A DNA stretch of 60,998 nt from Defluviitaleaceae bacterium (GTDB lineage: Bacteria > Bacillota > Clostridia > Lachnospirales > WRAA01), in contig WRAW01000003.1 of NCBI GenBank assembly GCA_009780015.1, forward strand, positions 1 to 60,998, given 5' to 3'. Each line of letters begins with the position of its first letter. Positions within the stretch are counted from its first letter, which is position 1. The notes beneath the pieces were generated by a model. That model did not search any database. It worked only from the letters and a program-made list of their open reading frames with translations, and was not told where the DNA came from. Positions 1 through 56,765 of this stretch are shown here, piece after piece. Made by a program: the position numbers and the translations under genes.

Positions 1-168
1 CAGTGTCGCCGTCGCCGTTTGACCCAGTGTCGCCGTCGCCGTTTGACCCAGTGTCGCCGTCGCCGTTTGACCCAGTGTCGCCGTCGCCGTTTGACCCAGT
101 GTCGCCGCCGCCGTTTGACCCAGTGTCGCCGTCGCCGTTTGACCCAGTGTCGCCGTCGCCGTTTGACC
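1..168. repeat. 24-bp tandem repeat, 7 copies, continues past the left edge
   Basis: CAGTGTCGCCGTCGCCGTTTGACC is repeated head to tail from 1, 25, 49, 73, 97, 121 and 145. Only copy 5 has a single T->C change. The period is 8 codons, so copy-number changes stay in frame. Confidence 0.95.
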
Positions 169-943
169 CAGTGTTATTGTCGGAGTGGACGTCTTCCAGC
201 CATGTTAGTATCGAGCCGCCGTGTTGCTGCACGTTACCCCAGAGGAAGTATATTCGGCTTGAGGTATTGGAAGCCGAAGTGTTGGCGATGCTTACTGTTC
301 CACGCGTTATGGTGATGATTCGGGAGATATTCTGCGCGACGGAGCCGGCCACTATGGCGGAGCCATGTGTCTGCCTTGTCGCGGTCGCCGTAACATTGAT
401 ACTGCCGGAGGTATCGAATAAAATGTTGCCGTTTGGGACGTTTATGCCGATAGTGTTTGGAGCGGGCGTGAGGGCTGTGAAGTGGGAGTCCCCGGCGACG
501 GTGAGGCCGTTTTGAGCCAGAACGACCTCCCTTGGCCCGCCGCTGCCTGATTTTGCGGCGCGGACTCTCGCGTCGCCGGTGATTGATATTCTGCCGTGAA
601 CCCGCATAGGGCTGCCGCCTTCGGATACAATGGACAGCGTGCCGCCGCTCCCTGAGATCGAGAGGTCGCCGTGGACATACAGGGCGTGTTCTCCGCCGGA
701 AGCTGTAATTGTCACGTCGCCGCTGTATTCCAGTACAACGTGTTGGGTGAAGCGGCTGAGCGAGATGTACGAGCCGCCGCCGGACAGCATGTCATGCCCG
801 TTTATAATCAATGAGGGGGCAGACGCTGCGTAGGCTCGAGTTGGGTAAATTCCGGCAAACAAGAATGATGAGGTTATTGATAAGATTACGCAAAGCAGTC
901 TGTGAAAAATACGGGCATATACTACATGATCTAACAGTTTCAC
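1..943 (-). CDS. secreted repeat protein, C-terminus cut by window edge (signal peptide, Gly/Ser-rich repeats, tandem SNGDGDTG octapeptides)
   Basis: Not in the ORF track because it runs off the window. Minus-strand GTG at 943-941 lies 6 nt after GGGAGGG (950-956). My hand translation of the first ~45 codons reads MKLLDHVVYARIFHRLLCVILSITSSFLFAGIYPTRAYA/ASAPS (signal peptide, AYA-A cleavage motif). A quicker reading of the rest found no stop down to position 2. The 24-nt repeats at 1-168 read SNGDGDTG in this frame. Confidence 0.6.
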   Translation of the reverse strand, partial: MKLLDHVVYARIFHRLLCVILSITSSFLFAGIYPTRAYAASAPSLIINGHDMLSGGGSYISLSRFTQHVVLEYSGDVTITASGGEHALYVHGDLSISGSGGTLSIVSEGGSPMRVHGRISITGDARVRAAKSGSGGPREVVLAQNGLTVAGDSHFTALTPAPNTIGINVPNGNILFDTSGSINVTATATRQTHGSAIVAGSVAQNISRIITITRGTVSIANTSASNTSSRIYFLWGNVQQHGGSILTWLEDVHSDNNTGSNGDGDTGSNGDGDTGSNGGGDTGSNGDGDTGSNGDGDTGSNGDGDTGSNGDGDT

Positions 944-3250: not shown

Positions 3251-3349
3251 ATGCTCAACCCTTTTCAAAATCAATATTATAGATGCTTGAACCGAAAACA
3301 GTCTTGCCTTTGCGGTCTTTTTGCTGCAATGCTGCGTCAACTCCTTCTA

Positions 3350-3409
3350 GCGTGCCTTTTGGGCACGCGTCGTCGTCGTTCCCTTGCCTTGCGACAAAAA
3401 TCTTCGCAA
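3350..3409. promoter_or_regulatory. two short palindromes in the divergent control region
   Basis: GCGTGCC-N5-GGCACGC at 3350-3368 and TTGCGA-N9-TCGCAA at 3389-3409. They lie between the divergently transcribed maturation operon (start 3250) and dpaL (start 3645). Confidence 0.3.
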
Positions 3410-3501
3410 ATTCAAGACCATTTTCGGATCAAGCAGCTATAACTGACAACTATAATATCGCGAATTGCGGCTTGATGCAATAAATTTGTTTCGTAAAACA
3501 C

Positions 3502-7432: not shown

Positions 7433-7604
7433 TTAAGAACCTGCGGTCAATAACCGAGATGCTGGCTAGAAGAGGCGATTTTTCGCCAATCTAGGAAGAG
7501 GCGACGCCGCGTACCCTTAGTGGTACGCAAGGAGGCGCTGACGACGAGTGGCGGAAAATCGGCCTTCTAGACGGCGTTGAGTGTTATTGACCGCTGGTTC
7601 TAAG
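7433..7604. repeat. family A long palindromic intergenic element, copy A1 (~172 bp)
   Basis: The outer stem AGAACCTGCGGTCAATAAC pairs with GTTATTGACCGCTGGTTCT. The core GGCGATTTTTCGCCAATCTAGGAAGAGGCGACGCCGCGTACCCTTAGTGGTACGCAAGGAGGCGCTGACGACGAGTGGCGGAAAATCGGCC is shared with the copies at 23.7, 23.8 and 46.8 kb. Confidence 0.85.
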
Positions 7605-7616
7605 ATATACTGTACA

Positions 7617-7713
7617 GCAATTCCGGCTGAGAAGGAACCCAAATTTTTCTGAAGCCCCGGCCTAAAGCCGCCGGGGTTCCGAAAAATTTGGGTTTGATTA
7701 GAACCGGAATTGC
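7617..7713. repeat. family B palindromic element, copy B1 (~97 bp)
   Basis: GCAATTCCGG...GGAACCCAAATTTTTCTGAAGCCCCGG / CCGGGGTTCCGAAAAATTTGGGTT...CCGGAATTGC. A second copy lies at 42265-42360. Confidence 0.85.
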
Positions 7714-7740
7714 TATACCGCGATAATTAAGGAGGAGAAT

Positions 7741-14100: not shown

Positions 14101-14195
14101 AATATACAGGAGGCGACGGTACGGTAACAAAAGAGTTTGCGGCGGCTGTCGCGATTGTGCAGACGGAGTACCAGTGGCTGCAAGTTGGTATTTAG
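11163..14195 (+). CDS. ygfK: YgfK-type multidomain Fe-S/FAD oxidoreductase (annotated elsewhere as putative selenate reductase subunit)
   Basis: 1010 aa. N-terminal DPD/DHOD-like barrel. GltD-like dinucleotide motifs VAVIGAGPAGISAALFL and VIGGGDVAMDCA. Cys clusters CTCDQLCEICADVCP and CNECGNCGIFCP. Confidence 0.9.
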   Translation: MSDLMRQIPFGQLIEWIFSEYEKQGTIFGIRKDRFYRNECGTHIEMFGEKLPTPIGPAAGPNSQLCQNIVAAYLTGSRFIELKTVQKMDGEDLRKCVPRPCINAQDEGYNVEWSTELTVPEAFDEYVKAWVALHVVGRELGISQGCDFIFNMSVGYDLEGIKSEKIDSFIEGLKDASQSDTFKNAIAHLSANLGRFKHVDQAFVDGISPNACTSITLSTLHGCPTDEIERIAKYLLDEKKIHTYIKCNPTLLGYDYARKTLDSMGYDYLVFDDHHFRHDLQYGDAVVMLRGLQDFAADRGLDFGVKITNTFPVKIDNNELPGEQMYMSGRALYPLSLSVARNLSKDFGGKLPISYSGGADALNIVELYKAGIRPITVCTTILKPGGYIRINQLAHALEPLLDGGFKGTDTAALDKLVDEMFTNERMLKKSRPVTSRKTDSKLGVFDCFKAPCKDGGCPIEQQIPEYLRLVAEGRHDEAFAVIAVDNANPAITGTICNHECQSKCTRLDYETPLAIRAIKRTAVMNAQDRFITAASAPELRTQSRVAVIGAGPAGISAALFLRRNGVDVTVFEKRDKPFGIVSYVIPEFRISREMIVKDFELAVKTGVKFIFGASDKVDVLDLQQQGGYDYVVLATGAWGKGELSLKEGEDRLVDALEFLEESKVRDCNLQLGKRVAVIGGGDVAMDCARAAKRAPGVEEVTIVYRRTKAFMPAEPEELAEAEADDVSFATLLTPLSYDGKILTCVQMELGARDASGRKSVKSTGITAELEFDTVICAVGAKVDTSVFTSNGIALDECGCVMHTKNRETSVPNVYVAGDAKSGPSTIVKAIADGKAIAKGILSKIDLSCDFEKKQLHTDLDLLYDKKGTLVELLEDAEEGYRCLTCDQLCEICADVCPNRANVAIEVPGAGKDTHQIIHIDGMCNECGNCGIFCPHDGNPYKDKLTIFWTEHDFDDSDNIGFLPLGENLYKVRDEHGNVREYTGGDGTVTKEFAAAVAIVQTEYQWLQVGI

Positions 14196-14322
14196 AACCG
14201 TGTTTAGTACCCGAAATGTCGGCTAGAAGCGGAAAATCGTCCTCACGAAGTCCGGGTTTGACTTTGCGGGGTAAAGTTCGACCTTCCAGGCGGCGTTGAG
14301 CGATACTGAACACAGGTTCTTA
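14192..14322. repeat. family A element, copy A2 (diverged core), overlapping the ygfK stop codon
   Basis: TTAGAACCGTGTTTAGTACCCGAAATGTCGGCTAGAAG...GGCGGCGTTGAGCGATACTGAACACAGGTTCTTA. The TAG stop of ygfK (14193-14195) lies inside the left terminus. Confidence 0.7.
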
Positions 14323-14334
14323 GAGGTCAGGGAT

Positions 14335-14394
14335 TGAGAACTGTGTTCAATGACTGCCGATACGGCTTTCTGTGTTATTGGGCACAGGTTCTAA
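14335..14394. repeat. family A stem-only mini element (A2b)
   Basis: GAGAACTGTGTTCAATGAC...GTTATTGGGCACAGGTTCTAA. It has the family A terminal arms around a ~20-nt loop and no core. Confidence 0.6.
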
Positions 14395-23577: not shown

Positions 23578-23650
23578 CGCGAGGAAATTAGGCGCGGCTA
23601 TTTACAACACGTGTGCCGGATGATAAACTTAATTAGGGCGTATTCCCACT

Positions 23651-23783
23651 AACAGTTACGTATCTTTGCGGCTTAATTTTCCGCCACTCTTCTTCAGCGA
23701 TACCTTGCGTACCGCTAGGGGTACGCGGCGGTATCACTTCCTCGATTGGCGAAAAATTAAGCTCGCAAATCTACGCAACTGTT
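23651..23783. repeat. family A core in inverted orientation with a different outer stem (A5)
   Basis: AACAGTTACGTATCTTTGCGGCTTAATTTTCCGCCACTC...GATTGGCGAAAAATTAAGCTCGCAAATCTACGCAACTGTT. The core is close to the reverse complement of the A1 core. Confidence 0.75.
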
Positions 23784-23950
23784 AGAACCTGTTTACCATC
23801 TTTATGCCGTTGGATTGATGAGCCCAGTTTTTCGCCATTCTAGGAGGAGATGACGCCGCGTACCTGTAAGGTACGCAAGGAATTGACGACGACGAAGGGT
23901 GGAAAACTGGCCGCCAAGACAATGGCGTAAAGATGGTAGACAGGTTCTTA
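23782..23950. repeat. family A element, copy A3
   Basis: TTAGAACCTGTTTACCATCTTTATGCC...core...GGCGTAAAGATGGTAGACAGGTTCTTA. Confidence 0.8.
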
Positions 23951-23992
23951 GTGGGAACACGCCCTAAAATACATACGTGAAAGAGGTGCAGT

Positions 23993-35447: not shown

Positions 35448-35518
35448 TTAGGGCGTGTTCCCACTACCAAAATCGCACTCGCAAAGATGTGCATTTTGTG
35501 TAGTGGGAACACGCCCTA
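35448..35518. repeat. family C element, copy C2 ('empty' 71-bp hairpin)
   Basis: TTAGGGCGTGTTCCCACTA, inner hairpin CAAAATCGCAC...GTGCATTTTG, then TAGTGGGAACACGCCCTA. It has the same termini as C1. Confidence 0.85.
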
Positions 35519-38740: not shown

Positions 38741-38868
38741 ATCGCTACCTCCTTTTTCGTGGGTGTCCTTCGCCTTGCCACACCATAGCCGACAGGCATA
38801 CGAATTTTAAGTATGCAAGGCGAAAGACATGATTGGCAGAAGGACAACCGGGTTATACCGGTGCCCCG

Positions 38869-40886: not shown

Positions 40887-42068
40887 ATGGATGTCAAGAA
40901 ATTAGCTGAGAGTATGCAAGATAAGGTTGTCATGTGGAGAAGAGACCTTCACAAAATTCCCGAGATAGGAAATTATTTGCCTCAGACATCAAAATATGTG
41001 CAGGACCGCCTTACAGAAATGGGTATTCCCTTTGTAACAATGGTAAACGGGTCTGGCGTGCTCGCGACAATCACCGGTGAAAGCTTGGGGAAAACCATTG
41101 CTTTGCGTGCTGATATGGACGCGCTTCCACTTACTGAGGACGCACCGGTTGATTTTAAATCGATGAACGGGAAAATGCACGCTTGTGGACACGATGCCCA
41201 TACGGCAATACTGCTTGGCGCGGCAAAGGTGTTAAATGACCATAAGTCAGGTATAAAAGGAACCATAAAGCTGATATTTCAGCCTGGTGAGGAAGCTCCA
41301 GGCGGTGCGAAGCCGATGATCGCGGAAGGCTGTCTTAGAGATGTCGACGCAATTTTTGGGCAGCATATAGGTTGCTTGTTCGCAAATATCAAGGAATCGG
41401 GGAAAATCCTTGTTTCACATAACAGCGCAATGGCTTGCAGAGATGTGTTTAAGATCAAAATCATCGGTCGCGGCGGTCACGGCGCTTGGCCGGAAAACTG
41501 CATCGACCCGATAACGATTGCGGCACAGGTAATCAACGGTATTAATGTAATTAAGGCTCGCGAAATTGCCGCCCTTGCACCCTCTGTTATTTCTATTTGC
41601 ATGGTACACGGTGGAACCGCAAACAACATTATTCCTCAGGTAGTGGAGCTTGAAGGCTCTACCCGTGCTGTTGACCAGAAAACCCGCGAGAAGATCGCCG
41701 CGAGAATCGAGCAGGTACTCAAGAGCACTTGCGAGGCGTATGGCGCAGCATATGAATTCAAATTTAGCTGGGATTACGACATAACCGTAAACAACCCCGA
41801 GATGGCCGACTTAGTAATAAAATCGGTGAAGGACTTGGGAATGGGCAATGATCTTCTGATCCAGCCAAACCCGCTTATGGGATCGGAGGACATGTCTTTC
41901 TTTCTTAACGAAGTTCCCGGGGCCTACTATTTTTTAACCTCGGTAGTGCAGCAGGACGGTCAAGTATACGGACACCACAACACAAAATTTATGCTTGACG
42001 AAAGCGTATTTTCAAAAGGTGTGGCTGTCTTCTTACAAATTACGGCTAACTATTTGGGTTTTGAGTAG
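40887..42068 (+). CDS. M20D-family amidohydrolase (N-acyl-amino-acid / hippurate hydrolase-like)
   Basis: 393 aa. WRRDLHKIPE... and the HACGHDAHT motif. AAAGGAGAG RBS. Confidence 0.85.
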   Translation: MDVKKLAESMQDKVVMWRRDLHKIPEIGNYLPQTSKYVQDRLTEMGIPFVTMVNGSGVLATITGESLGKTIALRADMDALPLTEDAPVDFKSMNGKMHACGHDAHTAILLGAAKVLNDHKSGIKGTIKLIFQPGEEAPGGAKPMIAEGCLRDVDAIFGQHIGCLFANIKESGKILVSHNSAMACRDVFKIKIIGRGGHGAWPENCIDPITIAAQVINGINVIKAREIAALAPSVISICMVHGGTANNIIPQVVELEGSTRAVDQKTREKIAARIEQVLKSTCEAYGAAYEFKFSWDYDITVNNPEMADLVIKSVKDLGMGNDLLIQPNPLMGSEDMSFFLNEVPGAYYFLTSVVQQDGQVYGHHNTKFMLDESVFSKGVAVFLQITANYLGFE

Positions 42069-42264
42069 ACTCCGGCAGGAATGATAACGTCAAGAGCTTC
42101 TTGGATAGTTTTCAGCAGCGCAAAAAAGTTGCAATTCCATGTTTCGCAGGAATTTGAACTTTTTTTGTGTTCTTACTCAGCGTCAGTTAATGCGCAACGC
42201 TCCGAATTTTAATGGATATTGCAAATATCACCGTAATATGTGCCCGCGTAACCGCACAGTACAT

Positions 42265-42360
42265 CAATTCCGGTTGAGAAGGAACCGAAATTTTTCGGAA
42301 TGCCCGGATTGAAGCCGCCGGGATTCCGAAAAATTTGGGCTTGATTTGAACCAGAATTGC
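42265..42360. repeat. family B palindromic element, copy B2
   Basis: CAATTCCGGTTGAGAAGGAACCGAAATTTTTCGGAATGCCCGG...CCGGGATTCCGAAAAATTTGGGCTTGATTTGAACCAGAATTGC. It aligns along the full length of B1. Confidence 0.85.
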
Positions 42361-42562
42361 TATAATTGTCACAGAAAAATTACCGTTCGACAATTTTATT
42401 TACAGAGAAATAACGAAAAGTCTTTACAGAAGGGCATACGGCTTGCCGCTCTGTGTCTCACCACTATTTTAGAAACTCAATACAACCAACTGAAATTTTA
42501 GCTGTCTATATATGTGAGAGGAAGAAGCAGCGCAGATAAATTATATTTTAGGAGAGTGTGTA

Positions 42563-42796
42563 ATGATATTTGAAAAGATAAGAACCATCATCGCCGGGCA
42601 AATGAGCATTGCCGAGGACAAAGTTACCATGAACACGTCCTTCGCCGACGACTTGGGCGCGGATTCTCTCGACATATTTCAGATAATATCCGAACTTGAA
42701 GAAGAGTTCAATATGGAATTTTCTAACGACGCTGCCGAGAAAGTTAGGACTGTGGCCGATGCCGTGGAGTATATTAAGAATTACGCGGGGGAGTAG
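42563..42796 (+). CDS. acyl carrier protein (stand-alone, outside a fab cluster)
   Basis: 77 aa. The phosphopantetheine site is in LGADSLD. Typical 4-helix ACP length and acidity. AGGAGAG RBS. Confidence 0.85.
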   Translation: MIFEKIRTIIAGQMSIAEDKVTMNTSFADDLGADSLDIFQIISELEEEFNMEFSNDAAEKVRTVADAVEYIKNYAGE

Positions 42797-42861
42797 CGCA
42801 TTGAGAAGGTTGATTACAGAAAGCACAGAATATATGCCGGAGCGCCCGTATAGCCGTATGG

Positions 42862-43078
42862 GTCATTGACAGCGAAACATCCACATTAAGAGTACAATTA
42901 TTGGTGAAGTGCGAGATACAGTTAATTGACTCCGGTAAAGCCGCTGAAGAAATTGTAAACATTTATTGAGGAAGAAAAAAGGTCTATTTGTATTTTTGCC
43001 GCCATGGATACTTTGGAATATTTACGTAAAGGCGGTCGTTTATCCAGAACATCAGCCTTTGACGGAACTTTGAGGAGG
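42862..43078 (+). pseudogene. DegV-family (fatty-acid-binding) gene remnant, frameshifted and truncated at both ends
   Basis: Frame 1 reads VIDSETSTLRVQLLVKCEIQLIDSGKAAEEIVNIY then a stop. After a 1-nt shift near 42960 it reads IEEEKRSICIFAAMDTLEYLRKGGRLSRTSAFDGTL. VIDS... and TLEYLxKGGR(I/L)S are DegV hallmarks. Only ~70 of the ~280 expected residues remain. Confidence 0.5.
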
Positions 43079-43084
43079 TTATTT

Positions 43085-43825
43085 ATGCTACAAGGAACAA
43101 CGGCGCTAATAACGGGAGCGTCAAGAGGCATAGGGAAAGCGATAGCTCTTGATATGGCGCATAGCGGAGCCAATATTGCGCTCAACTATATTGGAAATTC
43201 TGAGGAAGCGGATGCTGTGCGTACATTGATTTTAAAAGAAAATGTCCGGTGTGAAACGTATGAGTGCGATATTTCGGATTTCAACGAGTCGAAAAGAATG
43301 TCTGGCGATGTACTTAAAGATTTTTCGCGCGTTGACATTTTAGTGAATAACGCCGGTATAGCCCGCGATAATCCACTTTTAGGAATTAACGAAAAGGATT
43401 ATGATGATGTTATGAATATTAATTTAAAGGGCGCTTTTAATATGATAAAACATCTTTATCCTAATTTTATGAAAAACCGCTCAGGCACAATCATCAATAT
43501 AGCAAGCGTCTGTGGTCTCAGGGGCTGGGAATGGCAGGCCAACTATGCCGCTTCAAAGGGCGGGCTTATCGCGCTGACAAAAACCGTGGCAAAAGAGCTT
43601 GCAGGACGCGGGGTTACCTGTAACGCTATTGCTCCTGGGCTTATTGAAACCGATATGACCGCTAAACTGACAGGAAGCAAGAAGGATAGCTTCGTAGCCT
43701 CGATTCCCCTTCAGAGGGCAGGGCGGCCCGGAGATGTGTCAAAGCTTGCCGTCTTTTTAGCAGGCGCCGGGGCGTCGTATATCACAGGTGAAGTAATTAA
43801 AGTTGACGGAGGCTTGTGTATTTAA
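43085..43825 (+). CDS. FabG-like 3-oxoacyl-ACP reductase (classical SDR)
   Basis: ATG at 43085, 6 nt after GAGGAGG. TGASRGIGKA cofactor motif and the catalytic S...YAASK. The track ORF (43004) includes DegV-remnant codons. Confidence 0.85.
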   Translation: MLQGTTALITGASRGIGKAIALDMAHSGANIALNYIGNSEEADAVRTLILKENVRCETYECDISDFNESKRMSGDVLKDFSRVDILVNNAGIARDNPLLGINEKDYDDVMNINLKGAFNMIKHLYPNFMKNRSGTIINIASVCGLRGWEWQANYAASKGGLIALTKTVAKELAGRGVTCNAIAPGLIETDMTAKLTGSKKDSFVASIPLQRAGRPGDVSKLAVFLAGAGASYITGEVIKVDGGLCI

Positions 43826-44751
43826 TGAAAATCGGAATCCCGAGAGCTTTACTATATTATTATCATGAAGATTTATGGCTGAACTTTTTTAAAAATCTAC
43901 ATATTGAGACAATTGTCAGCCCTGAAACCAACAAGGACATCATTAAAAAAGGCGTAAACAATTCTATAGACGAAGGATGCTTTTCGTCTAAGATATTTAT
44001 AGGTCATGTAGAGTATATGCTTGATAAATGCGACATGATTTTTGTGCCGCGTATAGAAAATTCGGCAATTCGCGAGGAATACTGCACAAGGATTTTCGGC
44101 TTGTATGATCTTGTCAGAAACACTTTTCCAAACGCCAAACTTTTACATGCGGATATAAATTATCTCTACCGCAAAAGGGAATCTAACGCTTTTTTAGAAA
44201 TAGGCCAGACTTTGGGCAAAACCAAGGAAGAGTCTTTAGAGGCGTATAAGAAAGCTATGCTAACAGCCAATAATTTAAAAGAGGACAAGATATTAAAACA
44301 GGAAGCGCTGCTAAATGGTGACGGCCTAAAAATCTTGATTTTCTCACATGCGTACAACACTTTTGACGCTAGTATAGGGAAGGTTGTGACGGATTTTTTT
44401 GCGGAGAACAATATTAAAATAGCATACGCAGACTTGGTGAACGAGAAGAAAGCACGGGCGCTAACTAAGGATGCTTATGGAAACAGGATATATTGGAAAA
44501 TAACTGCCGAGCTGATGGGTGGCGCAGAAACATACAAGGACCGTGTAGACGGGATTGTTCTTATTTCAACATTTCCCTGCGGGCCTGACTCTATATTCAA
44601 TGAGCTGATGATAAGGATAGTAAAAGATAAGCCTATTCTGTCGCTTGTCTTTGACGATCAGGATGCCGGTGCGGGGATTCAGACGCGCCTGGAGAGCTTT
44701 GTTGACATTATTACGGCTGCGGGAAGGGGTGAGGGTAATGGCGGTTATTGA
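43825..44751 (+). CDS. acyl-CoA dehydratase activase-related protein (DUF2229-type, BCR/HAD superfamily accessory or catalytic subunit)
   Basis: MKIGIPRALLYYY is the typical DUF2229 opening. Conserved Cys residues (DEGCF, EEYCT, TFPCGPDS). The ATG overlaps the fabG-like stop (TAATG). Confidence 0.65.
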   Translation: MKIGIPRALLYYYHEDLWLNFFKNLHIETIVSPETNKDIIKKGVNNSIDEGCFSSKIFIGHVEYMLDKCDMIFVPRIENSAIREEYCTRIFGLYDLVRNTFPNAKLLHADINYLYRKRESNAFLEIGQTLGKTKEESLEAYKKAMLTANNLKEDKILKQEALLNGDGLKILIFSHAYNTFDASIGKVVTDFFAENNIKIAYADLVNEKKARALTKDAYGNRIYWKITAELMGGAETYKDRVDGIVLISTFPCGPDSIFNELMIRIVKDKPILSLVFDDQDAGAGIQTRLESFVDIITAAGRGEGNGGY

Positions 44752-45805
44752 GAAAATAGCCTGTACCCCGACAATGGGGGATTATCATATACTAACTGAT
44801 ATGCTAATGGAAAGATGTTTGAATTATAAGACGATGCTTTGTCCCCCTATGACCAAGCGGACGCTTGAACTTGGAGCCAGACACAGTCCCGACATGATTT
44901 GCACGCCTTTCAAAATAACGCTGGGCAATTTTATAGAAGCCGCCGAGATGGGCGCAAACGTGTTTGTGATGCCCGGAGCAGGCTGTCGGCTGGGGTTTTA
45001 CGATATATTGCAGCAGCAAGTTTTGTCGGATTTGGGATATGAATGTGAAATGTTTCCTCTTTTTGACTATATCCCGTCTGTAAACAGGATGTTTAAGGCG
45101 TTTAATGACGCAAATCCAGACCTAACCCGGGAGGATTTTGACGCCGTCATGGATACCGTTGTTAGAATTGCGCTAGACATGGATGAGCTTGCTGATTTTA
45201 TGAGAAGGAATATTGCTTTTGAAGTGAGCAAGGGCGAGTATGAAAAGCATTATAAAGCATATTTGAATAGTGCTAAAACTGTGCAAAGCGCAGCCGAAGC
45301 GGAAAGTATCGGCGCAAAATATAAAGAAGACCAAAAAGCCATTAAGATAAACAAACCTGACAGGCCCATAAGGATCGGTGTAATCGGCGAAATATATGTT
45401 GTTGTAGAGTCGTTTTCAAATTGCAACTTAGAAAAATGGCTTGCCGAACATGGTGTAGAGATTATCCGTCCTTTTGACTTGTCGCGTATGGCAGTCGCGA
45501 TTTTTACAGTGGATGAGCAAATTGAAAAAAGCGGAGGCTATGTGGACTATAACATTGGCAGTACCGCAAATGACGCGGTAGCGCAGGCTTATGAAATGAT
45601 AACCGGCGGAATCGACGGAATAATTCATATAAAGCCTTCATCATGCTCCCCTGAAATAACCGCGATGACAATTTTGCAAAACATGTCGAGAGATCACGAC
45701 ATTCCCATCATGTATTTAACATTTGATACCGAGACAAGCGAAGCGGGGTTTCACACAAGGCTTGAGGCATTCCACGATATGATAGTTATGAAGGGGCTGA
45801 AGTAG
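44738..45805 (+). CDS. second acyl-CoA dehydratase activase-related / HgdB-like subunit
   Basis: 355 aa (MAVIEKIACTPTMGDY...). Cys motifs MICTPFK, GAGCRLG and KPSSCSPE. It overlaps the previous gene by 14 nt. Confidence 0.65.
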   Translation: MAVIEKIACTPTMGDYHILTDMLMERCLNYKTMLCPPMTKRTLELGARHSPDMICTPFKITLGNFIEAAEMGANVFVMPGAGCRLGFYDILQQQVLSDLGYECEMFPLFDYIPSVNRMFKAFNDANPDLTREDFDAVMDTVVRIALDMDELADFMRRNIAFEVSKGEYEKHYKAYLNSAKTVQSAAEAESIGAKYKEDQKAIKINKPDRPIRIGVIGEIYVVVESFSNCNLEKWLAEHGVEIIRPFDLSRMAVAIFTVDEQIEKSGGYVDYNIGSTANDAVAQAYEMITGGIDGIIHIKPSSCSPEITAMTILQNMSRDHDIPIMYLTFDTETSEAGFHTRLEAFHDMIVMKGLK

Positions 45806-45807
45806 GA

Positions 45808-46773
45808 ATGAAAAAAGCGTACTTAGGTGTTGACATAGGCTCTATCTCTACAAAAGGCATTGTAATTAACGAAAACAACGAGATATTGGCAGACAGCTAT
45901 TTATGGACTATGGGCAACCCAATTCATGCTGTTAAAAGTGTGTTGAATGAGATGTCCGATAAGCTTGATAAGAGCCATGTCGTGGTAAATGCAGGAACGA
46001 CCGGTTCGGCAAGAAAACTTATAGGCGCGGCTTTGGGGGCGCGCGTTGTCAAGAATGAAATAACAGCCCATGCGATAGGCACACTCTCCGTTATCCCCGA
46101 TGTGCGAACAATTATTGAAATAGGCGGACAGGATTCAAAAATAATTTTAATCAATAACGGAGTCGTTATGGATTATGCTATGAATACGCTTTGCGCCGCC
46201 GGCACGGGCTCGTTTTTGAGCAGCCAGGCAAAGCGCCTTGATTTAGAGCTTAACGATTTCGCCGAACTTGCCTTGACAAGTGCTAATCCCGCTAAAATTG
46301 CCGCAAGATGTACGGTTTTTGCTGAAAGCGACCTTGTGCATAAAGCGCAGATCGGTTATAGCAAGGCCGATATAGTGGCGGGACTTTGCCGAGCCATTGT
46401 TTTGAATTATCTGAACAATGTTGGGAAGGGAAAGCAGATTAAGTCTCCCGTGGTTTTTCAAGGCGGAGTCAGTAAAAATGCCGCGGTGGTAAAAGAGTTT
46501 GAAAATGAACTTCAAACGCCGGTTCATGTGGACCCAAACGGTCATCTAATGGGGGCTCTCGGCGCGGCTGTTTTATGTAAAGCCGAAAAGGAAGAAACAA
46601 TCTTTAACTTTAACATTACTGATATCAATTTTGAGACAAAAGGGATTGAATGTACTTACTGCCCCAATAACTGTGAAATAATCTGCGTTTTAAAAAATAA
46701 AGAACTGCTTGATTCTTGGGGAAACAAATGCGAAAGGGGCATGGCGAAAGTTAATTCACAAAAAGCAGTGTAA
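45808..46773 (+). CDS. BcrAD/BadFG-family ATPase (CoA-substrate-specific enzyme activase, HgdC-like) with Cys-rich C-terminal tail
   Basis: GVDIGSISTKG and EIGGQDSK ASKHA motifs. Cluster-ligand contexts LCAAGTGSFL and RCTVFAESD. Tail CTYCPNNCEIIC...GNKCERG. Confidence 0.85.
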   Translation: MKKAYLGVDIGSISTKGIVINENNEILADSYLWTMGNPIHAVKSVLNEMSDKLDKSHVVVNAGTTGSARKLIGAALGARVVKNEITAHAIGTLSVIPDVRTIIEIGGQDSKIILINNGVVMDYAMNTLCAAGTGSFLSSQAKRLDLELNDFAELALTSANPAKIAARCTVFAESDLVHKAQIGYSKADIVAGLCRAIVLNYLNNVGKGKQIKSPVVFQGGVSKNAAVVKEFENELQTPVHVDPNGHLMGALGAAVLCKAEKEETIFNFNITDINFETKGIECTYCPNNCEIICVLKNKELLDSWGNKCERGMAKVNSQKAV

Positions 46774-46785
46774 ATATGTTATGTG

Positions 46786-46955
46786 TAAGAACCTGTGTTC
46801 AATACCCGAAATGCTGGCCGGGAGAGGCGATTTTTCGCCAATCTAGTAAATGACGACGACGCGTACCCGAAGCGGTACGCTAGGAGGAGTTGACGACGAG
46901 TGGCGGAAAATTGACCTTCTGGACAGCGTTGAGCGGTATTGAACACAGGTTCTAA
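46786..46955. repeat. family A element, copy A4 (best-preserved palindrome), between convergent operons
   Basis: TAAGAACCTGTGTTCAATACCCGAAATGCTGGCC...core...GGACAGCGTTGAGCGGTATTGAACACAGGTTCTAA. Confidence 0.85.
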
Positions 46956-47027
46956 ATATAGCAAAAGAACCCACTTAAAGCATAAGGCCCCTGTAAGCGT
47001 TAAGTAAAACCGGCGCCTGCATTATGA

Positions 47028-49130
47028 TTACTTTTGCATAATACGCATACTGTTAAAGACAGCTAACAAAGATACGCCTACATCGGCAAAAACCGCTTCC
47101 CACAGTGAAGATACGCCTAATGTAGCCAAAAACAGGAACAAAAATTTGACCCCAAGCGAAACTACAATATTCTGCCAAACTACGCGTTTTGTAAAGCGGG
47201 CGATTTCTATTGCCTCTAACAATTTTCCCGGTTCATCAGTCATGAGCACAACATCAGCCGCTTCAATAGCCGCGTCCGAACCCAGGCCGCCCATTGCCAC
47301 ACCTACGTCCGCCATAGCCAGTACAGGCGCGTCATTAATACCGTCGCCCACAAAGGCAAGGGTCTTTTTAGGCTGCTTCTGTTTGATTAACATTTCGACT
47401 TTCTCTACTTTTTGTTGGGGCAGCAAGCCGGCGTGCATTTCGTCCAGTTTCAATTCATTTGCGATAATTTTGGCGATCTGCGGAGTGTCGCCTGTCAACA
47501 TCACCGTCTTCCTAACGCCCATATTTTTTAATGAATTTACAAGTCCATAACTGTCCGGCTTTATTTTATCCGCAATCACAATACAGCCGGCAAATACTCC
47601 ATCTATCGAAACGTACACTTTTGTACCGATGCTTGGAGATTCTGTAAATGTAACTCCCATTACGCCCATCAGCTTTTCGTTTCCGGCCAGAATCGTTCTG
47701 CCGTTTGCATTTACGCTGACGCCATGCCCCGCGATCTCTTCATAATGTGTTAAGCTGTCTTTATCGATTTGTCTGCCATATTCCTGTAGGATTGACACAG
47801 CGATTGGGTGGTTTGAGAAGGTTTCGGCGCAGGCTGTCGCTTCAAGCAACTCATTTTCATTGAATCCATTTGTTGGTTGTATAGCCGTGACTTTGAAAAT
47901 ACCTTGCGTAAGAGTGCCCGTCTTGTCGAACACCACCAAATCAAGATTCGCAAGGGCTTCTAAATAGTTGCCGCCTTTTACTAAAACTCCTTTTTTGGAC
48001 GCGCCGCCAATACCGCCCATAAAGCCAAGAGGAATAGATACCACTAACGCGCAGGGACAAGATATTACAAGAAATATCAAGGCGCGGCTGACCCAGTCAA
48101 TCCAATCGCCGCCAAAGAATAATGGCGGAATGATAGCAAGTAATACCGCAAAGCCTACAACCGCGGGGGTATAATACCGAGCGAATTTTGTAATAAATGT
48201 TTCAGTGGAAGCTTTTTTATTGGTCGCATTTTCTACAAGGTCGAGTATTTTTGATACTGTTGATTCACCAAATAATTGTGTTGCTTGTATAGTGAGCACG
48301 CCATTCTGATTTATACAGCCCGATAATACGGTGTCGGATACAGACGCTTTTCGCGGTACGGATTCCCCGGTCAGCGCTGTTGTGTCCAGCATGGCTTCGC
48401 CCTCAACTACAACGCCGTCTAATGGAATTTTTTCGCCGGGTTTTACTATAAACAAGTCGCCTATTTTCACGTTGTCAGGGGCAACTTTTATTACTTGTCC
48501 GTCTTTTTTCAAGTTGGCATAATCCGGGCGTATGTCCATGAGATCGCCAATCCTTTTTTTTGATTTTGCTACCGCTATTTCTTGAAAAAACTCGCCTATC
48601 TGATAAAAAAGCATAACGATTGCGGCTTCGTAATAATAGCCGATGGCGATTGCTCCAAGCGTCGCAAATCCCATAAGGAAATTTTCATCAAAAATTTGAC
48701 CCTTTGCGATATTTCTAACCATACGAATAAGAACCTTACCGCCAAGCGATAAATAACAAAAAGCAAATAAGCCGAGCGAAACATAAGCGCTGCCGCGAAC
48801 ATCAAAAACGTACTCAAAAAGAATGCCGGTGATAAACGCGACAGCCCCGGCAGTCAGCCATAAAATTTTATACTTACTTACTGTAGCGTCTATTATCTGT
48901 TTTGCTTCGTTATTTTCTAACACTTGTATGTCCGGCTCGTATGTATGCACAATGCTTTCAATAGCTTCGCGCATATTTTTGGATTCATAGTTGACTGTTT
49001 CGATCCGTAATTTTGATGTTGCGAGGTTTACAGATACGGATTTTATGTTTTCCATTTTCTTTACCGCTCTCTCAATTTTTGCGGCGCAACCAGCACAATC
49101 TAAGCCTTGTAAAATAAATTCCTTGGCCAT
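47028..49130 (-). CDS. cadA: heavy-metal (Cd/Zn/Co-type) translocating P1B-ATPase
   Basis: 700 aa. N-terminal HMA domain GLDCAGCAAKIE, the CPC motif (SCPCALVVS), DKTGTLT and GDGINDAP. Confidence 0.9.
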   Translation of the reverse strand: MAKEFILQGLDCAGCAAKIERAVKKMENIKSVSVNLATSKLRIETVNYESKNMREAIESIVHTYEPDIQVLENNEAKQIIDATVSKYKILWLTAGAVAFITGILFEYVFDVRGSAYVSLGLFAFCYLSLGGKVLIRMVRNIAKGQIFDENFLMGFATLGAIAIGYYYEAAIVMLFYQIGEFFQEIAVAKSKKRIGDLMDIRPDYANLKKDGQVIKVAPDNVKIGDLFIVKPGEKIPLDGVVVEGEAMLDTTALTGESVPRKASVSDTVLSGCINQNGVLTIQATQLFGESTVSKILDLVENATNKKASTETFITKFARYYTPAVVGFAVLLAIIPPLFFGGDWIDWVSRALIFLVISCPCALVVSIPLGFMGGIGGASKKGVLVKGGNYLEALANLDLVVFDKTGTLTQGIFKVTAIQPTNGFNENELLEATACAETFSNHPIAVSILQEYGRQIDKDSLTHYEEIAGHGVSVNANGRTILAGNEKLMGVMGVTFTESPSIGTKVYVSIDGVFAGCIVIADKIKPDSYGLVNSLKNMGVRKTVMLTGDTPQIAKIIANELKLDEMHAGLLPQQKVEKVEMLIKQKQPKKTLAFVGDGINDAPVLAMADVGVAMGGLGSDAAIEAADVVLMTDEPGKLLEAIEIARFTKRVVWQNIVVSLGVKFLFLFLATLGVSSLWEAVFADVGVSLLAVFNSMRIMQK

Positions 49131-49156
49131 AGAACACCCTCCTGTTCAACTATATA

Positions 49157-49230
49157 TTTGAACGAATATTCAATCACAATGCAAAAAACTTGTTGTCCCC
49201 TATAATGAATTAATTGAACACATATTCAAA
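49157..49230. promoter_or_regulatory. two ArsR/SmtB-type operator boxes upstream of cadA
   Basis: TTTGAACGAATATTCAA (49157-49173) and ATTGAACACATATTCAAA (49213-49230). They resemble the 12-2-12 TGAACA-N-TATTCA type operators of CzrA/CadC-like repressors. Confidence 0.6.
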
Positions 49231-49246
49231 TAATGGGATAAAAAAA

Positions 49247-49603
49247 TTACTCTGAAATATGCTCCAGGCCTTTATCAAAAATCTCTTTTGCATGACAATC
49301 TACAAGTGAATAATACACAACCTTACCTTGCTTATCAAACTTAACAAGGTTAGCAAGCCGCAATGACTTAAGTTGATGTGACACGGCTGATGTAGTCATA
49401 CCTAGTAGCGCCGCTAAATCGCAAACGCACATTTCCTCGCAGGAAAGCGCCCATAAAATTTTTAAACGGGTATTGTCGGCAAACATTTTATAAAGGTTCG
49501 CAAGGTCATAGAAGCTTTTGCCTTCGGGCATAGCGGCACGAACACGAGCCACAACTTCCTCATGGATAACATCAAAATCGCAAGATGATGATTTCTTTTT
49601 CAT
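49247..49603 (-). CDS. ArsR/SmtB-family metalloregulator (CadC-like, alpha3N CVC site)
   Basis: LKILWALSCEEMCVCDLAALLGMTTSAVSHQLKSL (wHTH with CVC). I chose the start at ATG 49603, 9 nt after AAAGGG. The track ORF starts at 49642. Confidence 0.8.
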   Translation of the reverse strand: MKKKSSSCDFDVIHEEVVARVRAAMPEGKSFYDLANLYKMFADNTRLKILWALSCEEMCVCDLAALLGMTTSAVSHQLKSLRLANLVKFDKQGKVVYYSLVDCHAKEIFDKGLEHISE

Positions 49604-49625
49604 TCCCGACATCCCTTTAAAAACA

Positions 49626-49643
49626 TTTGAATATTTGTTCAAA
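49626..49643. promoter_or_regulatory. third operator box, upstream of the repressor gene (autoregulation)
   Basis: TTTGAATATTTGTTCAAA. This is the same half-sites as the two boxes at 49157-49230 and a perfect inverted repeat TTTGAA/TTCAAA. Confidence 0.6.
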
Positions 49644-50144
49644 TATATTATATGCTAGAGCAAGCCGTTTGTCAATAGTTTTGCAGAAAGAAATTGACGA
49701 TATGTATGTGCTACAATGATATGAGCCAATAAATAAAGATGTTCTTGATTCAGAATGGTGGAATAAGCTTAAAGACGAAATGCAGAACGCGGAAGTCATA
49801 CGCGTATAAGATAGACTGTTGTGATTTGCCCGAAAAAAACAGCGCAGGCCAAAAAAAATTGTTGTTGAATTTGCATTAAGGTTTGTGATATAATAACTTG
49901 AGAATATATACCCAAAGCTAAGAAAAAAGATTTTCAAAGGTGTTGACAAAATTGCTGAACTGTGAACAATTTTTAGTAAGCAAGAAGATAGCTCCGTATT
50001 TTTGTCGTTTAATAAAACTGAATACCCTCTAAGATATAATAAGTGGTTGTTTCTTTGTATTTCCATGCAGAGGGCAGCCGCTTCTATACTTTTCTGATGG
50101 TAAAAGTACGGTGAGATTATTGAATAAGTTTCGGAGGTATTTTT

Positions 50145-52439
50145 ATGAAGAACTTAAAGATTTCAAAAAAGCTTGCAGTTTGTTTCCTAATTGTAGTTCT
50201 GTTGACGATTATTCCAACTGTGGTTTCTTTGGTTTCAATGAGCAGCTTAGCAAATGAAACCGTGCATAATCAAAATACCATTACAGAGCCTCTGGACTTA
50301 ATGGTAAGGTTTTCAATCTCTTATGGAAACGCGCGTTCTGCCCTGCGAGATTTGGGACACGCCGTAATATTGGAAGGCGATGTAGATAGATACATAGCCG
50401 CCTCCGAAGATGGGTTGAATTTGGCAATCCACCATTTGAGGGAGTATTATGAAATGCTTTCGGCTGATGCCAGGCGCAATCAACAAGAATATGAAGCTGT
50501 ACGGAGAACTTACTTCGCAATGGTTGAATATGCGGACATCTCTTTGAATCAGCTGCTTCCGGCAATGGGGTTTGGCGGGGAGCGTAACGTGCCGGAATCG
50601 TTCGGTATTCTTCATGGTGATTTGGCTCCTCTTGACGCTGCGATAAAAGATGATATTTACTTTTTGACATCACTCAACTCGAGCAAAGGTCACGAAAGCG
50701 CGGCACGGGCAATATCTAACTTGCAGACAAGTATTATAAGCAGCGTTGCTATTCTTATTGTCATCATAATTCTTGTGCTTCTCCTCGCTGTCTATGTTTC
50801 CGGTACAATAACCAAGCCAATCGGCAAAGTTGTTGCTGTAGTAAGTGATTTGGCTAAGGGCAACATGAATATGAACATTGATAGAGCGAACGTCTCAAAA
50901 GACGAGATTGGTATGTTGATCAACGATATTTACAGCCTTGTTGATGTCATAAAAAATATAGTGGATGATTTAGACAAAATGGAGCATGAGTTTAACGTAG
51001 CCGGGGACTTCGAGTATAGGGTTGACGTTAATAAATATCAAAACTCCTTTAGGGAAATGATTGAAAAGGTACACGCAATAATAGATGACCAAACGAAAGA
51101 TATTGTTGGGGTGCTGGGCGTTATAAATCAAATAGGCGATGGGGATTTTAATATTACCATTAACGATATGCCCGGGAAAAAAGCAGTAATGCCGCAGATG
51201 CTCCGCACCGTTACCGATAACCTGAAAGGCGTCAGCGCCGAGGTAAAAGAAATGATTGAAGCGGCAGTGGGCAAAGGCGATTTAAATTTCCGAATTGATG
51301 TGGATCAATATAGGGGTGATTGGCGCGAAATTATGATTGGGCTTAACGGTATTGTAAAAGCTGTGGATGAACCAATTAGAGTGCTTAAGACATCTCTCGA
51401 TGAAATGAAAGCCGGTAGTTTTGAATTAGCTAAACTAGATAAAAAGCTTGTTGAGATGGGACTTGAACCTGATGCAAAAAAGTATAGGGGTATATTTAAG
51501 GACAGTATACTTGCTATAGATGATTCTATGGTAGAAATATATTCCTATATAAATGAACTGGATGAAGTGCTGGCTCAAATATCAGGTGGTAACTTACGCA
51601 GTAAAATTGAGCGGGAATATGTGGGTGATTTTGCTACCATTAAAAATTCAATAAACAATATCAACAGCACGCTTTACAAAACCATGTCGGAAATCTCAGC
51701 GGCATCCGAACAAGTGCTGTCAGGAGCGCAGCAAATTTCCAACAATGCAGCCAATTTATCAAACGGCGCGCAGGAACAAGCGAACTCTGTACAAGAACTC
51801 AATAATACTATAGACATGATTAACCAACAGACCAAACAAAATGCGGACAACGCGTTGACCGCTAACGAGCTTTCCAATAAGTCCACCGCCAATGCCCAAG
51901 ATGGCAACAGCGCGATGAAGCAGATGGTGGAAGCAATGATGCAGATCAAGGAATCGTCCAACAATATATCTAAGATTGTAAAGACTATTCAAGACATAGC
52001 GTTTCAAACAAATCTGCTTGCGCTGAACGCTTCTGTCGAAGCGGCAAGGGCGGGCGAACATGGAAAAGGGTTTAGTGTTGTAGCTGATGAAGTGCGCAGC
52101 CTTGCGGGGCGAAGTCAAACAGCCGCTTCCGAAACAACCAGCCTTATCCAAGACTCTATCAGCCGTGTAGAATCCGGCTCAGCCATTGCGGAAACAACAG
52201 CCGACTCATTGAACGCCATTGTCGCAAGCGCCAATGAAGTATTGGAGATTATAAGCAGAATTTCAACCGCGTCAAAAGAGCAGGCGGAAGCGATTGCGAA
52301 TGTCAGCGACGGGCTTGCGCAAATATCAAAAGTGGTACAGAACAATTCGACTGTTTCAGAAGAAACGGCGGCGGCGTCGGAGGAATTAAGCTCACAAGCC
52401 GAAGTGCTGCGGAAGTTAGTAGCGTTTTTCAAATTATAA
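50145..52439 (+). CDS. methyl-accepting chemotaxis protein with periplasmic helical sensor and multiple HAMP repeats
   Basis: 764 aa. Two TM segments bracket ~170 aa. Repeated HAMP-like units ([38 protein letters not shown]). [30 protein letters not shown]. Confidence 0.9.
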
Positions 52440-52466
52440 TTAGTAATCTCATATCAAAACACTGCA

Positions 52467-52498
52467 CCCGAAGGGCATTACAAGCTCTTCGGGTTTTT
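52467..52498 (+). terminator. rho-independent terminator after the MCP gene
   Basis: CCCGAAG (52467-52473) pairs with CTTCGGG (52487-52493), followed by TTTTT. Confidence 0.75.
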
Positions 52499-53077
52499 AA
52501 ATTATTAGGAGGTTTATTGTGCTGAGAATTTGGCCTGAAGAACATGGAAACGAGACGGCTTCACATTTGCAGGAGGGCCGCCTCGTTTCCGAAAGGTGTC
52601 ATTCCGCTTCAGTTAGAGTGAATTCAATCTTTATTCCTTCACCGTATCCAGCTTAGCTAAGAGCACGGATTCAAGCCTTGCCACTGCTCCAACCAGCTTG
52701 GTTCCCGCCGTATTTTATGCAAACAAATCCTCTGTAGTTACACTTTCCAATATCATCAATCATGTTTATGTAATTCGAGCAATTGGGTAACGGAAGTCTT
52801 GCCAAAATTAGGAGCGTATTTAAACGTAATATTAAAATCTTGTGTATAGTTTGTTGCTGACGTTGAGCGTTCGTAATAGTTGCCCACGTCAGCCGCACTT
52901 ATAAAATAGCCAAGTACAGTGTGGAAATTGCTCTTGTAATTATACGTTATAGAGTAGTACAATGATATATTAATAGGCTGACGCTGATGGATTGTATGAC
53001 ATCACGGCAAGCAGCGGAAAAAATGGGGCGTTATTTTGCGCCGGTGTACAGCAATATTTGAGAGATGAAAGATACCC

Positions 53078-55120: not shown

Positions 55121-55140
55121 AGAAAGGTTGGCTGGGAACG

Positions 55141-55878
55141 ATGTATGACATCCTTCTTGTTGAAGACAACGAGGCCATACAGCAAATCAATAAAGAACTG
55201 TTTGAGGGGGAAGGCGGCTACAATGTACGGCTTGCCATGAATATTGCCGAGGCAAGGGACAGCATTACAGAATCCGAACCCAGCCTTATCGTACTTGACA
55301 TAATGCTGCCGGACGGGAATGGGCTGGACTTTCTCAGGGAGATCAGGCGGCAAGGCTTGGATATTCCTATACTGCTGCTTACCGCCCTGGCGGAATCCGA
55401 CGACGAAGTAAGAGGCATAAGAGAGGGCGGAGATGATTATATTGCGAAGCCTTATGACAGCGAAGTTCTTTTGGTACGTATAGGTAATCTTTTAAACCGG
55501 CGACAAAAAGCTAATGAGCGGGTCAAGGAAGCTGTAACGCAGGTCAAAGCCGCCGCCGATATTGTGGAATACGGCCCGTTGACCATCAACAACATAACAC
55601 AGAGAGTAAGCCTTAATGGTGAAGATGTGAACCTGGGGCCTAAGGAATTTTTACTGCTCAATTATTTTCTCAAAAATACCGACAAGAAACTGACAGCGGA
55701 AGAGCTTTATGAGGCTGTGTGGGGTCTGGACGCCAACAGTTCTGTCGATGTAGTGAGGGTACGCATTAAAGACCTCCGAAAAAAATTGAAAATGGATGAC
55801 GAGGTTGCGGTTATCATAGAAACGGAAGAGCGGAAATATTATGTGTGCAGATTATGTGCTGGGGACGGTATATTGTAA
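55141..55878 (+). CDS. OmpR-family response regulator (receiver + winged helix)
   Basis: LLVEDNE, phospho-acceptor in LIVLDIMLPDGNG, LLTA, KPY. The C-terminal trans_reg_C-like region is ...LTAEELYEAVWG...VRVRIKDLRKKL. Confidence 0.9.
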   Translation: MYDILLVEDNEAIQQINKELFEGEGGYNVRLAMNIAEARDSITESEPSLIVLDIMLPDGNGLDFLREIRRQGLDIPILLLTALAESDDEVRGIREGGDDYIAKPYDSEVLLVRIGNLLNRRQKANERVKEAVTQVKAAADIVEYGPLTINNITQRVSLNGEDVNLGPKEFLLLNYFLKNTDKKLTAEELYEAVWGLDANSSVDVVRVRIKDLRKKLKMDDEVAVIIETEERKYYVCRLCAGDGIL

Positions 55879-56032
55879 AAGGGATTGATTAAAGCACTAC
55901 ATCAATATACCGCAACTTCATTATGATTAGGCGGCGAATAAAACTTTTGTAATATGACGTGCTGTTGTCATATTAATTATGGTATACTTGGGATACTGAA
56001 AGAAAAAATTAACTCGCAGGAGGAATTACAAA

Positions 56033-56581: not shown

Positions 56582-56647
56582 TATAGGTGGTAAGTGTATT
56601 CTCTGGTTATCTTGACGCCTAAAACATGAACATATGGTATTTTTAAC

Positions 56648-56682
56648 GGCTTCGGTAACGATTTTGTTATCGAAGCCTTTTT
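56648..56682 (+). terminator. rho-independent terminator
   Basis: GGCTTCG (56648-56654) pairs with CGAAGCC (56671-56677), followed by TTTTT. Confidence 0.6.
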
Positions 56683-56765
56683 GACGTTTGGGATTGCTAT
56701 AGTTATCTTGCTTGCGTGTGGGTTCACCGTCGGTATCGACTAAGCGAATCGAAAGAGGTGCTGCA

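Follow-up and report, generated by a model that had tools for sequence, protein, structure and literature searches.

Hairpin-forming miniature elements with IS5-type ends and a shared structured core in termite-gut Defluviitaleaceae

The window (the whole 61-kb stretch of DNA analysed, 60,998 nucleotides) is part of a 90.9-kb contig from a termite-gut metagenome assembly. A purine-degradation cluster occupies positions 1-26700, with a G+C content of 0.56; in the right third (42000-60998), which encodes sensor kinases, a chemotaxis receptor and a cadA-like ATPase, the G+C content is 0.42. Seven copies or derivatives of one repeat were found in the 61 kb, all of them intergenic (Table 1). Copy A6 (G+C 0.51) lies at the start of the AT-rich part. 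Full copies are 167-172 bp long, and each forms one long hairpin (z-scores -9 to -13).

Table 1. Copies and derivatives of the repeat in the window. The limits of A1, A2, A3, A5 and A6 include the duplicated triplets; core positions are those of the core covariance model.
Copy	Type	Limits	Strand	Flanks	Core	Other features
A1	Full MITE, outer-stem type 1b	7434-7603	+	TAA at 7434-7436 and 7601-7603	7474-7564 (+)	Ends GAACCTGCGG...CCGCTGGTTC
A2	Core-less, type-1 ends	14192-14322	+	TTA..TTA		Inner hairpin module X2 (CACGAAG..loop..) remains
A3	Stem-only derivative, 60 bp	14335-14394	+	TGA..TAA		Ends GAACTGTG...CACAGGTTC
A4	Composite palindrome	23634-23966	-	TA-flanked	23671-23761 (-)	Family-C arms TAGGGCGTATTCCCAC...GTGGGAACACGCCCTA; interrupted by A5
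A5	Full MITE, outer-stem type 2-like	23782-23950	+	TTA at 23782-23784 and 23948-23950	23823-23912 (+)
A6	Full MITE, outer-stem type 1a	46786-46955	+	TAA..TAA	46826-46916 (+)
A7	Hairpin copy	~3276-3443	-		3314-3403 (-)	Fourth kind of outer stem (TATAGCTGCTTGATCCGAAAA...)

A reading of the sequence alone had listed six copies or derivatives; when the sequence was re-read, all six were found where they had been placed, to within one base. A7 is absent from that list. Its core was detected by local BLAST and by the covariance model (73.8 bits), and was not among the sequences used to build the model, which finds five sense cores in the window. The conserved core described in the sequence-only reading is borne out by the pattern TTTTCGCCA..GCGTACC..GGTACGC, which has four matches in the window against none expected from 100 shuffles. 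Repeat finding pairs 7434-7603 with 46786-46955 at 84% identity and links the core of both to 23676-23757, inverted. The stem substitutions quoted earlier (GCGGTCAATAAC/GTTATTGACCGC versus GTGTTCAATACC/GGTATTGAACAC, and the pair TTACCATCTTTATGCC/GGCGTAAAGATGGTA) are also correct. For the copy placed at 23651-23783, the inverted core stands and the limits do not, as this stretch is the centre of the larger palindrome A4.

A5 is nested in the right arm of A4, where it was inserted at a TTA; once A5 and one TTA are removed, the A4 fold is -108.5 kcal/mol. The family-C arms and the core of A4 recur together in locus L053. A7 folds at -82.3 kcal/mol in the sense direction versus -67.4 in antisense; its central hairpin is compensated (GCGTGCC/GGCACGC), and its backbone has relatives at L086 1973 and L041 5411. 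Coding potential of the core was considered and rejected; there is no start codon, and every frame contains stops.

The outer stems fall into subfamilies: type 1a (GAACCTGTGTTCAATACCCGAAATGC), type 1b (GAACCTGCGGTCAATAACCGA, as in A1), type 1c (...TTCATAGGTGGGGATGG) and type 2 (GAGCCTGTTTAGTATCTTTTTRCCGTTGG, as in relatives of A5). Every difference between these subfamilies is compensated on the opposite arm. Within the stem lies a core of about 85 nt, the outermost part of which is a 10-bp stem, UUUUUCGCCA/UGGCGGAAAA. Its two internal loops are conserved, rich in purines and related by the dyad. The first internal loop has AUCUAGGAAG (CUAGGARG) opposite GACGACGAG; the second loop mirrors the first, with GACGAC opposite UAGGAGGA; the terminal hairpin is GCGUACC/GGUACGC. 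The helix between the two loops is 3-8 bp long and is hypervariable yet complementary (AGU/ACU, GCGC/GCGC, GUG/CAC, AGCCCC/GGGGCU, GUGAUACC/GGUAUCGC and others). Each core arm has the form CTAGGARG-h-GACGACG, and one arm directly repeats the other about the dyad.

Two further hairpin modules are optional. X3 follows GGTACGCTAG in L009, L011, L026 and L038; X2 follows GGCGGAAAA in L026 and L053, in both cases beside an intact core. A2 is an X2-bearing copy that lost its core. The two modules are inserted at the same two core-region points in elements of different subfamilies; this placement implies either recombination between subfamilies or site-specific module insertion. Much smaller derivatives also occur. 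A 36-bp mini element at L078 4508-4549, flanked by TTA..TTA, is comparable to A3, and both keep the ends and the duplication.

According to the core model, the core recurs inside at least five different outer backbones. These are the GARCCTGT-ended backbone with its TWA duplication, a GGGTCTGT- (GGGTCTGTAAG-) ended backbone flanked by TTA..TTA (L066), a TAGGCCTGTCC-ended backbone (L026 4724), the TA-flanked family-C arms (A4 in the window, and L053) and a TATAGYTG-ended backbone (A7 in the window, L086 and L041). In some backbones the terminal hairpin has been replaced on both sides, giving GCGTGCC/GGCACGC or GCGAACC/GGTTCGC. Model scores are about 100 bits for sense versus about 30 for antisense, and there are roughly 85 sense matches across the fetched loci (424 kb). 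As the pattern used to find most copies requires parts of the core, the invariance of the core is partly by construction. A weak core-model match in an intergenic spacer of the window (38762-38849; 18.3 bits, E ~0.015) has a fold unlike that of the core and is probably due to chance.

All full copies carry the inverted ends GARCCTGTKT...AMACAGGYTC, one at each side. Immediately outside these ends, an identical triplet (TAA..TAA or TTA..TTA) flanks 26 of the 31 trimmed full copies. The form TAA..TTA, which is expected if the triplets are part of the palindrome, is found in only one of 27 informative copies; by simple arithmetic, with triplets at their observed frequencies, the chance of identity in 26 of 27 is about 3e-5. 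Since TAA and TTA are reverse complements, they represent a single target, TWA, which is used in both orientations. Around it the context is W-C/TWA/G-W: C is found at -1 in 11/25 and G at +1 in 12/25, while A or T occupies position -2 in 21/25 and +2 in 19/25. This agrees with an IS5-family derivative, from which a short duplication at an A/T-rich, CTAG-like target is expected. Copies without the core (A2 and the L078 mini element) are still duplicated.

Comparison with relatives (SsnA 83-90% identical) shows sites without the element. The spacer between ygeW and ssnA is 385 nt in the window; in the relatives it is 64 nt, 16 nt or the genes overlap, and the element is absent from this spacer in L094 and L096-L099. 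In L094 the spacer can be aligned on both sides and lacks both A1 and the adjoining family-B element. Because the spacers of the relatives are short or empty, the 385-nt spacer is the derived form, built by insertions. A blastn comparison of the window with the pattern-derived loci gave no base-exact empty site with a single TWA, and exact-protein look-ups for synteny led back to the source contig alone.

In many copies the left end directly adjoins the stop codon of the upstream gene (e.g. L021, L048, L086, L026, L060 and L082; 14192-14195 in the window). Insertion at a stop codon is harmless to the protein, as TWA includes TAA and the duplication restores the stop. At two other loci (L042 570-2662 and L078 4508-7718), AT-rich DNA of 2-3 kb with ordinary genes lies between two element ends; these segments could be composite mobile segments bounded by MITEs, or simply neighbouring insertions.

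The sequence-only reading saw no transposase in the window, and this holds: no IS5-type transposase is encoded there. A DUF4096-like tblastn match at 53108-53332 is weak, lies inside a histidine kinase gene and was discarded as spurious. Searches of the window, of a further 20 kb of its contig and of related loci totalling about 600 kb gave no full-length IS bearing these ends; 9 kb of leftward contig extension contain no further copy and no transposase. A search for paired ends 260-4000 bp apart, and for any 11-nt inverted repeat with TWA flanks, gave only a chance match in L090. Solo ends in L026 and L042 lie next to ordinary genes and no transposase.

A scan for unpaired ends identified L064, in which the contig stops 120 nt into the element; the termite-gut IS is known from this 120-nt contig end only. 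The element begins with TTA followed by GAGCCTGTTCCGAGTC, then a TATAAT box, a ribosome-binding site and an ATG (MRKPYPSDITREQFE). Across two termite-gut DNA runs, depth is 9.8 in the flank, about 365 in the interior and about 1176 over the first 30 nt. Because depth is higher there, the terminal 30 nt must be common to a larger population, which fits the MITEs. The 16-aa transposase fragment of L064 was extended to 25 aa by a loose-end consensus, and this N-terminus is 68-76% identical to annotated IS5-family transposases (856 plasmids). The best-matching IS is on the complete Bacillus thuringiensis plasmid p150790 (WP_094194459.1). It is about 850 bp long, has the ends GAACCTGTCTGGAATC...GATTCTAGACAGGTTC between two TAA triplets, and contains two ORFs that match NCBIfam transpos_IS5_3 and Pfam DUF4096 and DDE_Tnp_1.

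Joining the 25-aa fragment to the B. thuringiensis sequence gave a probe for metagenomic ISs; the probe is a search device and not a natural protein. The ISs found (L102/L103 and L106-L113) have the ends GAGCCTGTTTAGTATCTT(TT) on one or both sides, and these are identical over 18-20 nt to the ends of type-2 MITEs (e.g. L018 and the relatives of A5). All three IS copies with unique flanks (L107, L109 and L110) are flanked by TTA..TTA. Several short IS contigs (L102-L104 and L106) have non-identical flanking triplets, and in several a common right flank is attached to differing left flanks; the unequal triplets fit assembly chimeras of a repeat. For type-1 ends (GAACCTGTGTTCAAT) the match to known IS ends is limited to about 10-12 nt. 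The interior of the MITE, from about 22 nt inwards, is unrelated to that of the IS; the MITE is therefore not a simple internal deletion of the IS.

Target-site duplications, inverted ends identical to those of IS5-family elements, high copy number and empty orthologous sites together show that these elements are MITEs. It is very likely that they are non-coding, near-palindromic elements of about 170 bp moved in trans by an IS5-family DDE transposase of the two-ORF type (DUF4096 and DDE_Tnp_1). From the shared ends, we infer that an IS5-type transposase is the mobilising enzyme. There is good support for a new MITE family that belongs to the IS5 lineage, is abundant among termite-gut Defluviitaleaceae and takes its ends from an identified IS type. 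The family provides a bacterial MITE tied to an IS5-family partner by 20-nt identical ends and by the TWA duplication typical of the IS5/Harbinger lineage.

Under this MITE reading, the transposase would recognise the ends of about 20 bp (GARCCTGTKTW...) and cut the target with a 3-nt stagger at TWA, with a preference for W-C/TWA/G-W; repair would then leave TWA duplicated on both sides. The copies would depend, as parasites, on full-length ISs located elsewhere, in the genome or in the community. Between the ends, the body is not IS-derived; it is a long hairpin built around the ~85-nt core. Copies would be carried passively into host operon transcripts and may fold there into the hairpin.

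Several known systems resemble these elements in part. IS5-family ISs of the transpos_IS5_3 type share the GARCCTGT... ends (up to 20/20 nt in type-2 copies) and the 3-bp TAA/TTA duplication; in contrast, the MITE has no transposase. TWA duplication is a hallmark of PIF/Harbinger elements, the eukaryotic relatives of IS5 (PMC4482050). Tourist-like MITEs such as mPing, which belong with PIF/Harbinger, likewise have a 3-bp TWA duplication and short inverted ends, are non-coding, and reach high copy number in genic neighbourhoods (PMC4482050, PMC2836001); however, they are eukaryotic, are mobilised by two proteins, and do not form a hairpin over their whole length around a conserved core. Correia elements (NEMIS, in Neisseria), ERIC and RUP are also bacterial MITEs of 100-170 bp that are intergenic, co-transcribed and form long RNA hairpins (review: PMC10969869). 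The sequence-only reading had proposed an ERIC/Correia-type MITE; the MITE part of this proposal is upheld, but not membership of the ERIC/Correia group, as those elements have a TA duplication rather than the 3-bp TWA, have other ends and show no sequence relation. BOX of pneumococcus and the BIMEs of enterobacteria are modular in a similar way (here X2 and X3 occur at fixed points, and the core occurs across backbones), but defined inverted ends with duplications are missing from them, and no IS partner has been identified. REPINs (REP doublets, RAYT) also form hairpins and show compensatory changes; they differ in having neither a duplication nor DDE-type ends, and are thought to move as single-stranded DNA. 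Literature searches found no report of a bacterial MITE from this lineage that makes a TWA duplication.

True copies are confined to two termite-gut Defluviitaleaceae MAGs in a scan of 185,579 representative genomes (one genome per species); the other ten matches of that scan are due to chance. A metagenome scan returned at least 72 stretches; among the matches listed, almost all are from termite-gut samples and many copies sit at contig ends, as expected from a repeat that breaks assemblies. The repeat that interrupts termite-gut Defluviitaleaceae assemblies at many points is now named and explained. The summed depth of A6 is about 1400 versus about 14 in its flanks (DNA run X1), an excess of about 100-fold that is seen in the two DNA runs holding the window. 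Contigs from the DNA runs diverge exactly at 46786 and 46955, the limits of A6. A blastn search of a plasmid collection with A6 gave no match. The sequence-only reading had named confinement of the repeat to this locus, as a local duplication, among the outcomes that would refute it; the ~100-fold depth and the presence of copies on dozens of unrelated contigs argue against this.

The compensatory stem changes proposed from the window extend across the family. In an alignment of 28 full copies, 27 of 52 pairs have changed on both sides and 97.9% of cells are paired. None of 500 shuffles reached the observed pairing on any of five measures; when the partner is slid by 1-3 columns, paired cells drop to 36-47% and at most 10 pairs are double-changed. 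Neither of the outcomes that would have counted against the hairpin, uncompensated stem changes or a structure that is not conserved, is seen at this level of pairing. Covariation alone cannot separate RNA from DNA, because a DNA palindrome gives the same result.

The two strands are not equivalent in their pairing. In the 28-copy alignment, G·U is found in 98 cells versus A·C in 7. Counted as alignment columns, and not as independent events on a tree, G·U shared by at least two copies occurs in 14 columns and shared A·C in none, while singletons number 8 versus 7. The consensus fold has 52 pairs (-71.8 kcal/mol) in the sense direction versus 38 pairs (-44.9) for the reverse complement; when the reverse-complement alignment is folded independently, it has no shared G·U of its own. 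Single-sequence folds give -91 to -94 kcal/mol for sense versus -69 to -75 for antisense, and an arm alignment that scores every mismatch alike contains 119 G·U-type versus 38 A·C-type mismatches. The description of the repeat as a hairpin module under selection for pairing is thus supported, with pairing that is well above chance and strand-specific. Our reading is that mutations arising after insertion are strand-neutral, while inherited ones have been filtered for sense-strand pairing as a single strand. Strand-specific pairing would then reflect selection on a single-stranded form, most likely RNA, in the lineages that gave rise to the copies. That recent mutations are strand-symmetric and inherited ones are not suggests selection in the source copies beyond the transposase-binding ends. 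The leading candidates for what keeps the fold and core would be an RNA-level role or a role in transposition itself.

The hairpin might instead be maintained at the DNA level only. In this account, which we consider possible but rather improbable, intrastrand template switching copies changes from one arm to the other, the hairpin plays no part at the RNA level, and the core is just what the family has shared for longest. Conversion of this kind is visible: in L042 the left arm has become an exact complement of the right arm, in L051 the conversion ran the other way, and in L030 and L064 the outer loop has been replaced by a perfect helix. The deletion derivatives A2, A3 and the L078 mini element look like slippage across hairpins, and the copies show no bias in orientation relative to genes (12 sense and 13 antisense in tandem contexts). 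However, template switching gives Watson-Crick complements and not G·U, which is at odds with the excess of shared G·U columns over A·C and the near-equal singletons. In addition, the asymmetric internal loops remain unconverted and are conserved in sequence in at least five backbones.

A second account concerns the core specifically. The ~85-nt core may be a functional structured RNA or single-stranded DNA, a passenger of several unrelated MITE backbones that is selected for aiding spread or tolerance; we regard this as doubtful. Its possible roles would include a protein-binding site, a ribosome or CsrA-type decoy acting through the exposed AGGAGG loops, and a processing or stability signal. 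Its presence in five kinds of backbone favours such a function, as do loops that are conserved while stems covary (whole-hairpin replacements included), the strand difference in model score, and the occurrence of copies in metatranscriptome contigs. On the other hand, Rfam returned nothing at gathering score for the whole window and nothing at E=10 for A6, no internal consensus promoter was found, and no terminator-like site (GC-rich hairpin and U-tract) occurs in or beside A1 or A6. Core-less copies still carry duplications, and the apparent invariance owes something to the search pattern. The absence of orientation bias also makes a host-level RNA role awkward. It is accordingly only a tentative suggestion that the core is a strand-specific RNA or single-stranded DNA module, with two dyad-related, purine-rich loops (CUAGGAGG facing GACGACGA) on either side of a hypervariable self-complementary helix, acquired and kept by backbones with different ends and different transposases. 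If true, the core would actively promote spread of the element or its tolerance by the host, and would be a kind of passenger RNA motif not yet described for bacterial MITEs; MITEs could then carry and spread a structured RNA module through operons.

Copies are represented in RNA data. One metatranscriptome contains exact contigs of the purine cluster of this organism. Among them is a 265-nt contig matching 14165-14427, which starts in the last part of the ygfK-like gene, takes in A2 and A3, and ends close to xdhA without reaching it. Depth of the family in that metatranscriptome reaches 171, with local flanks at 0-4. The contigs are unstranded and may include DNA. At the edge of A1, an outward promoter-like site lies on the minus strand at 7450-7422, with TTGACC in the left end of A1, TATTAT in the flank and a 17-nt spacer (10/12 matches). 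From its motifs, this site is possibly a hybrid promoter created by the insertion.

It is very improbable that the repeat is a local duplication, or that it is a non-mobile regulatory hairpin which the host encodes at operon boundaries as a terminator, attenuator or mRNA stabiliser. Such a role would suit the intergenic position of the copies, several of them at an upstream stop codon, and the great stability of their folds (z-scores as above); however, there is no U-tract or terminator-like site and both orientations are equally frequent, while the duplications, IS-identical ends and empty sites argue for mobility, and the depth and the number of unrelated contigs argue against confinement to one locus. 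Least probable is a REP/REPIN-type element that a RAYT (IS200/IS605-like HUH) enzyme moves as single-stranded DNA. This would explain the strand-specific fold, and the long imperfect palindrome and the compensatory evolution would suit it, but target-site duplications and inverted repeats shared with a DDE-type IS are absent from REPINs, the two reverse-complement forms of the triplet are expected from a double-stranded element inserting either way, and none of the loci read showed a RAYT gene with these repeats on either side.

Other repeats occur close to these elements, and these genomes seem to hold many hairpin repeat families. Family B is a palindromic repeat of about 109 bp, found at 7609-7717 and 42256-42364 (87% identity) with ends GTAYAGCAATTCCGG...CCGGAATTGCTATAC; the first copy directly adjoins A1, no clear duplication was seen, and family B is missing from the orthologous spacer of L094 noted above. 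Family C, a palindrome of about 70 bp at 35449-35518 (TAGGGCGTGTTCCCAC...GTGGGAACACGCCCTA), has TA on both sides, and its arms are also found at 23634-23650 and 23951-23966; it has the look of a MITE from another group, one that duplicates TA. Further small palindromes, e.g. TAACCTGAAAATCGC...CGAACTCAGGTTAA, are found upstream of ssnA in a relative (L094 1-190). A 24-nt unit (CAGTGTCGCCGTCGCCGTTTGACC) is repeated in tandem about eight times in a coding region at the left edge of the window (1-198); the product of the gene over these repeats, on the opposite strand, matches Cu_amine_oxidN1.
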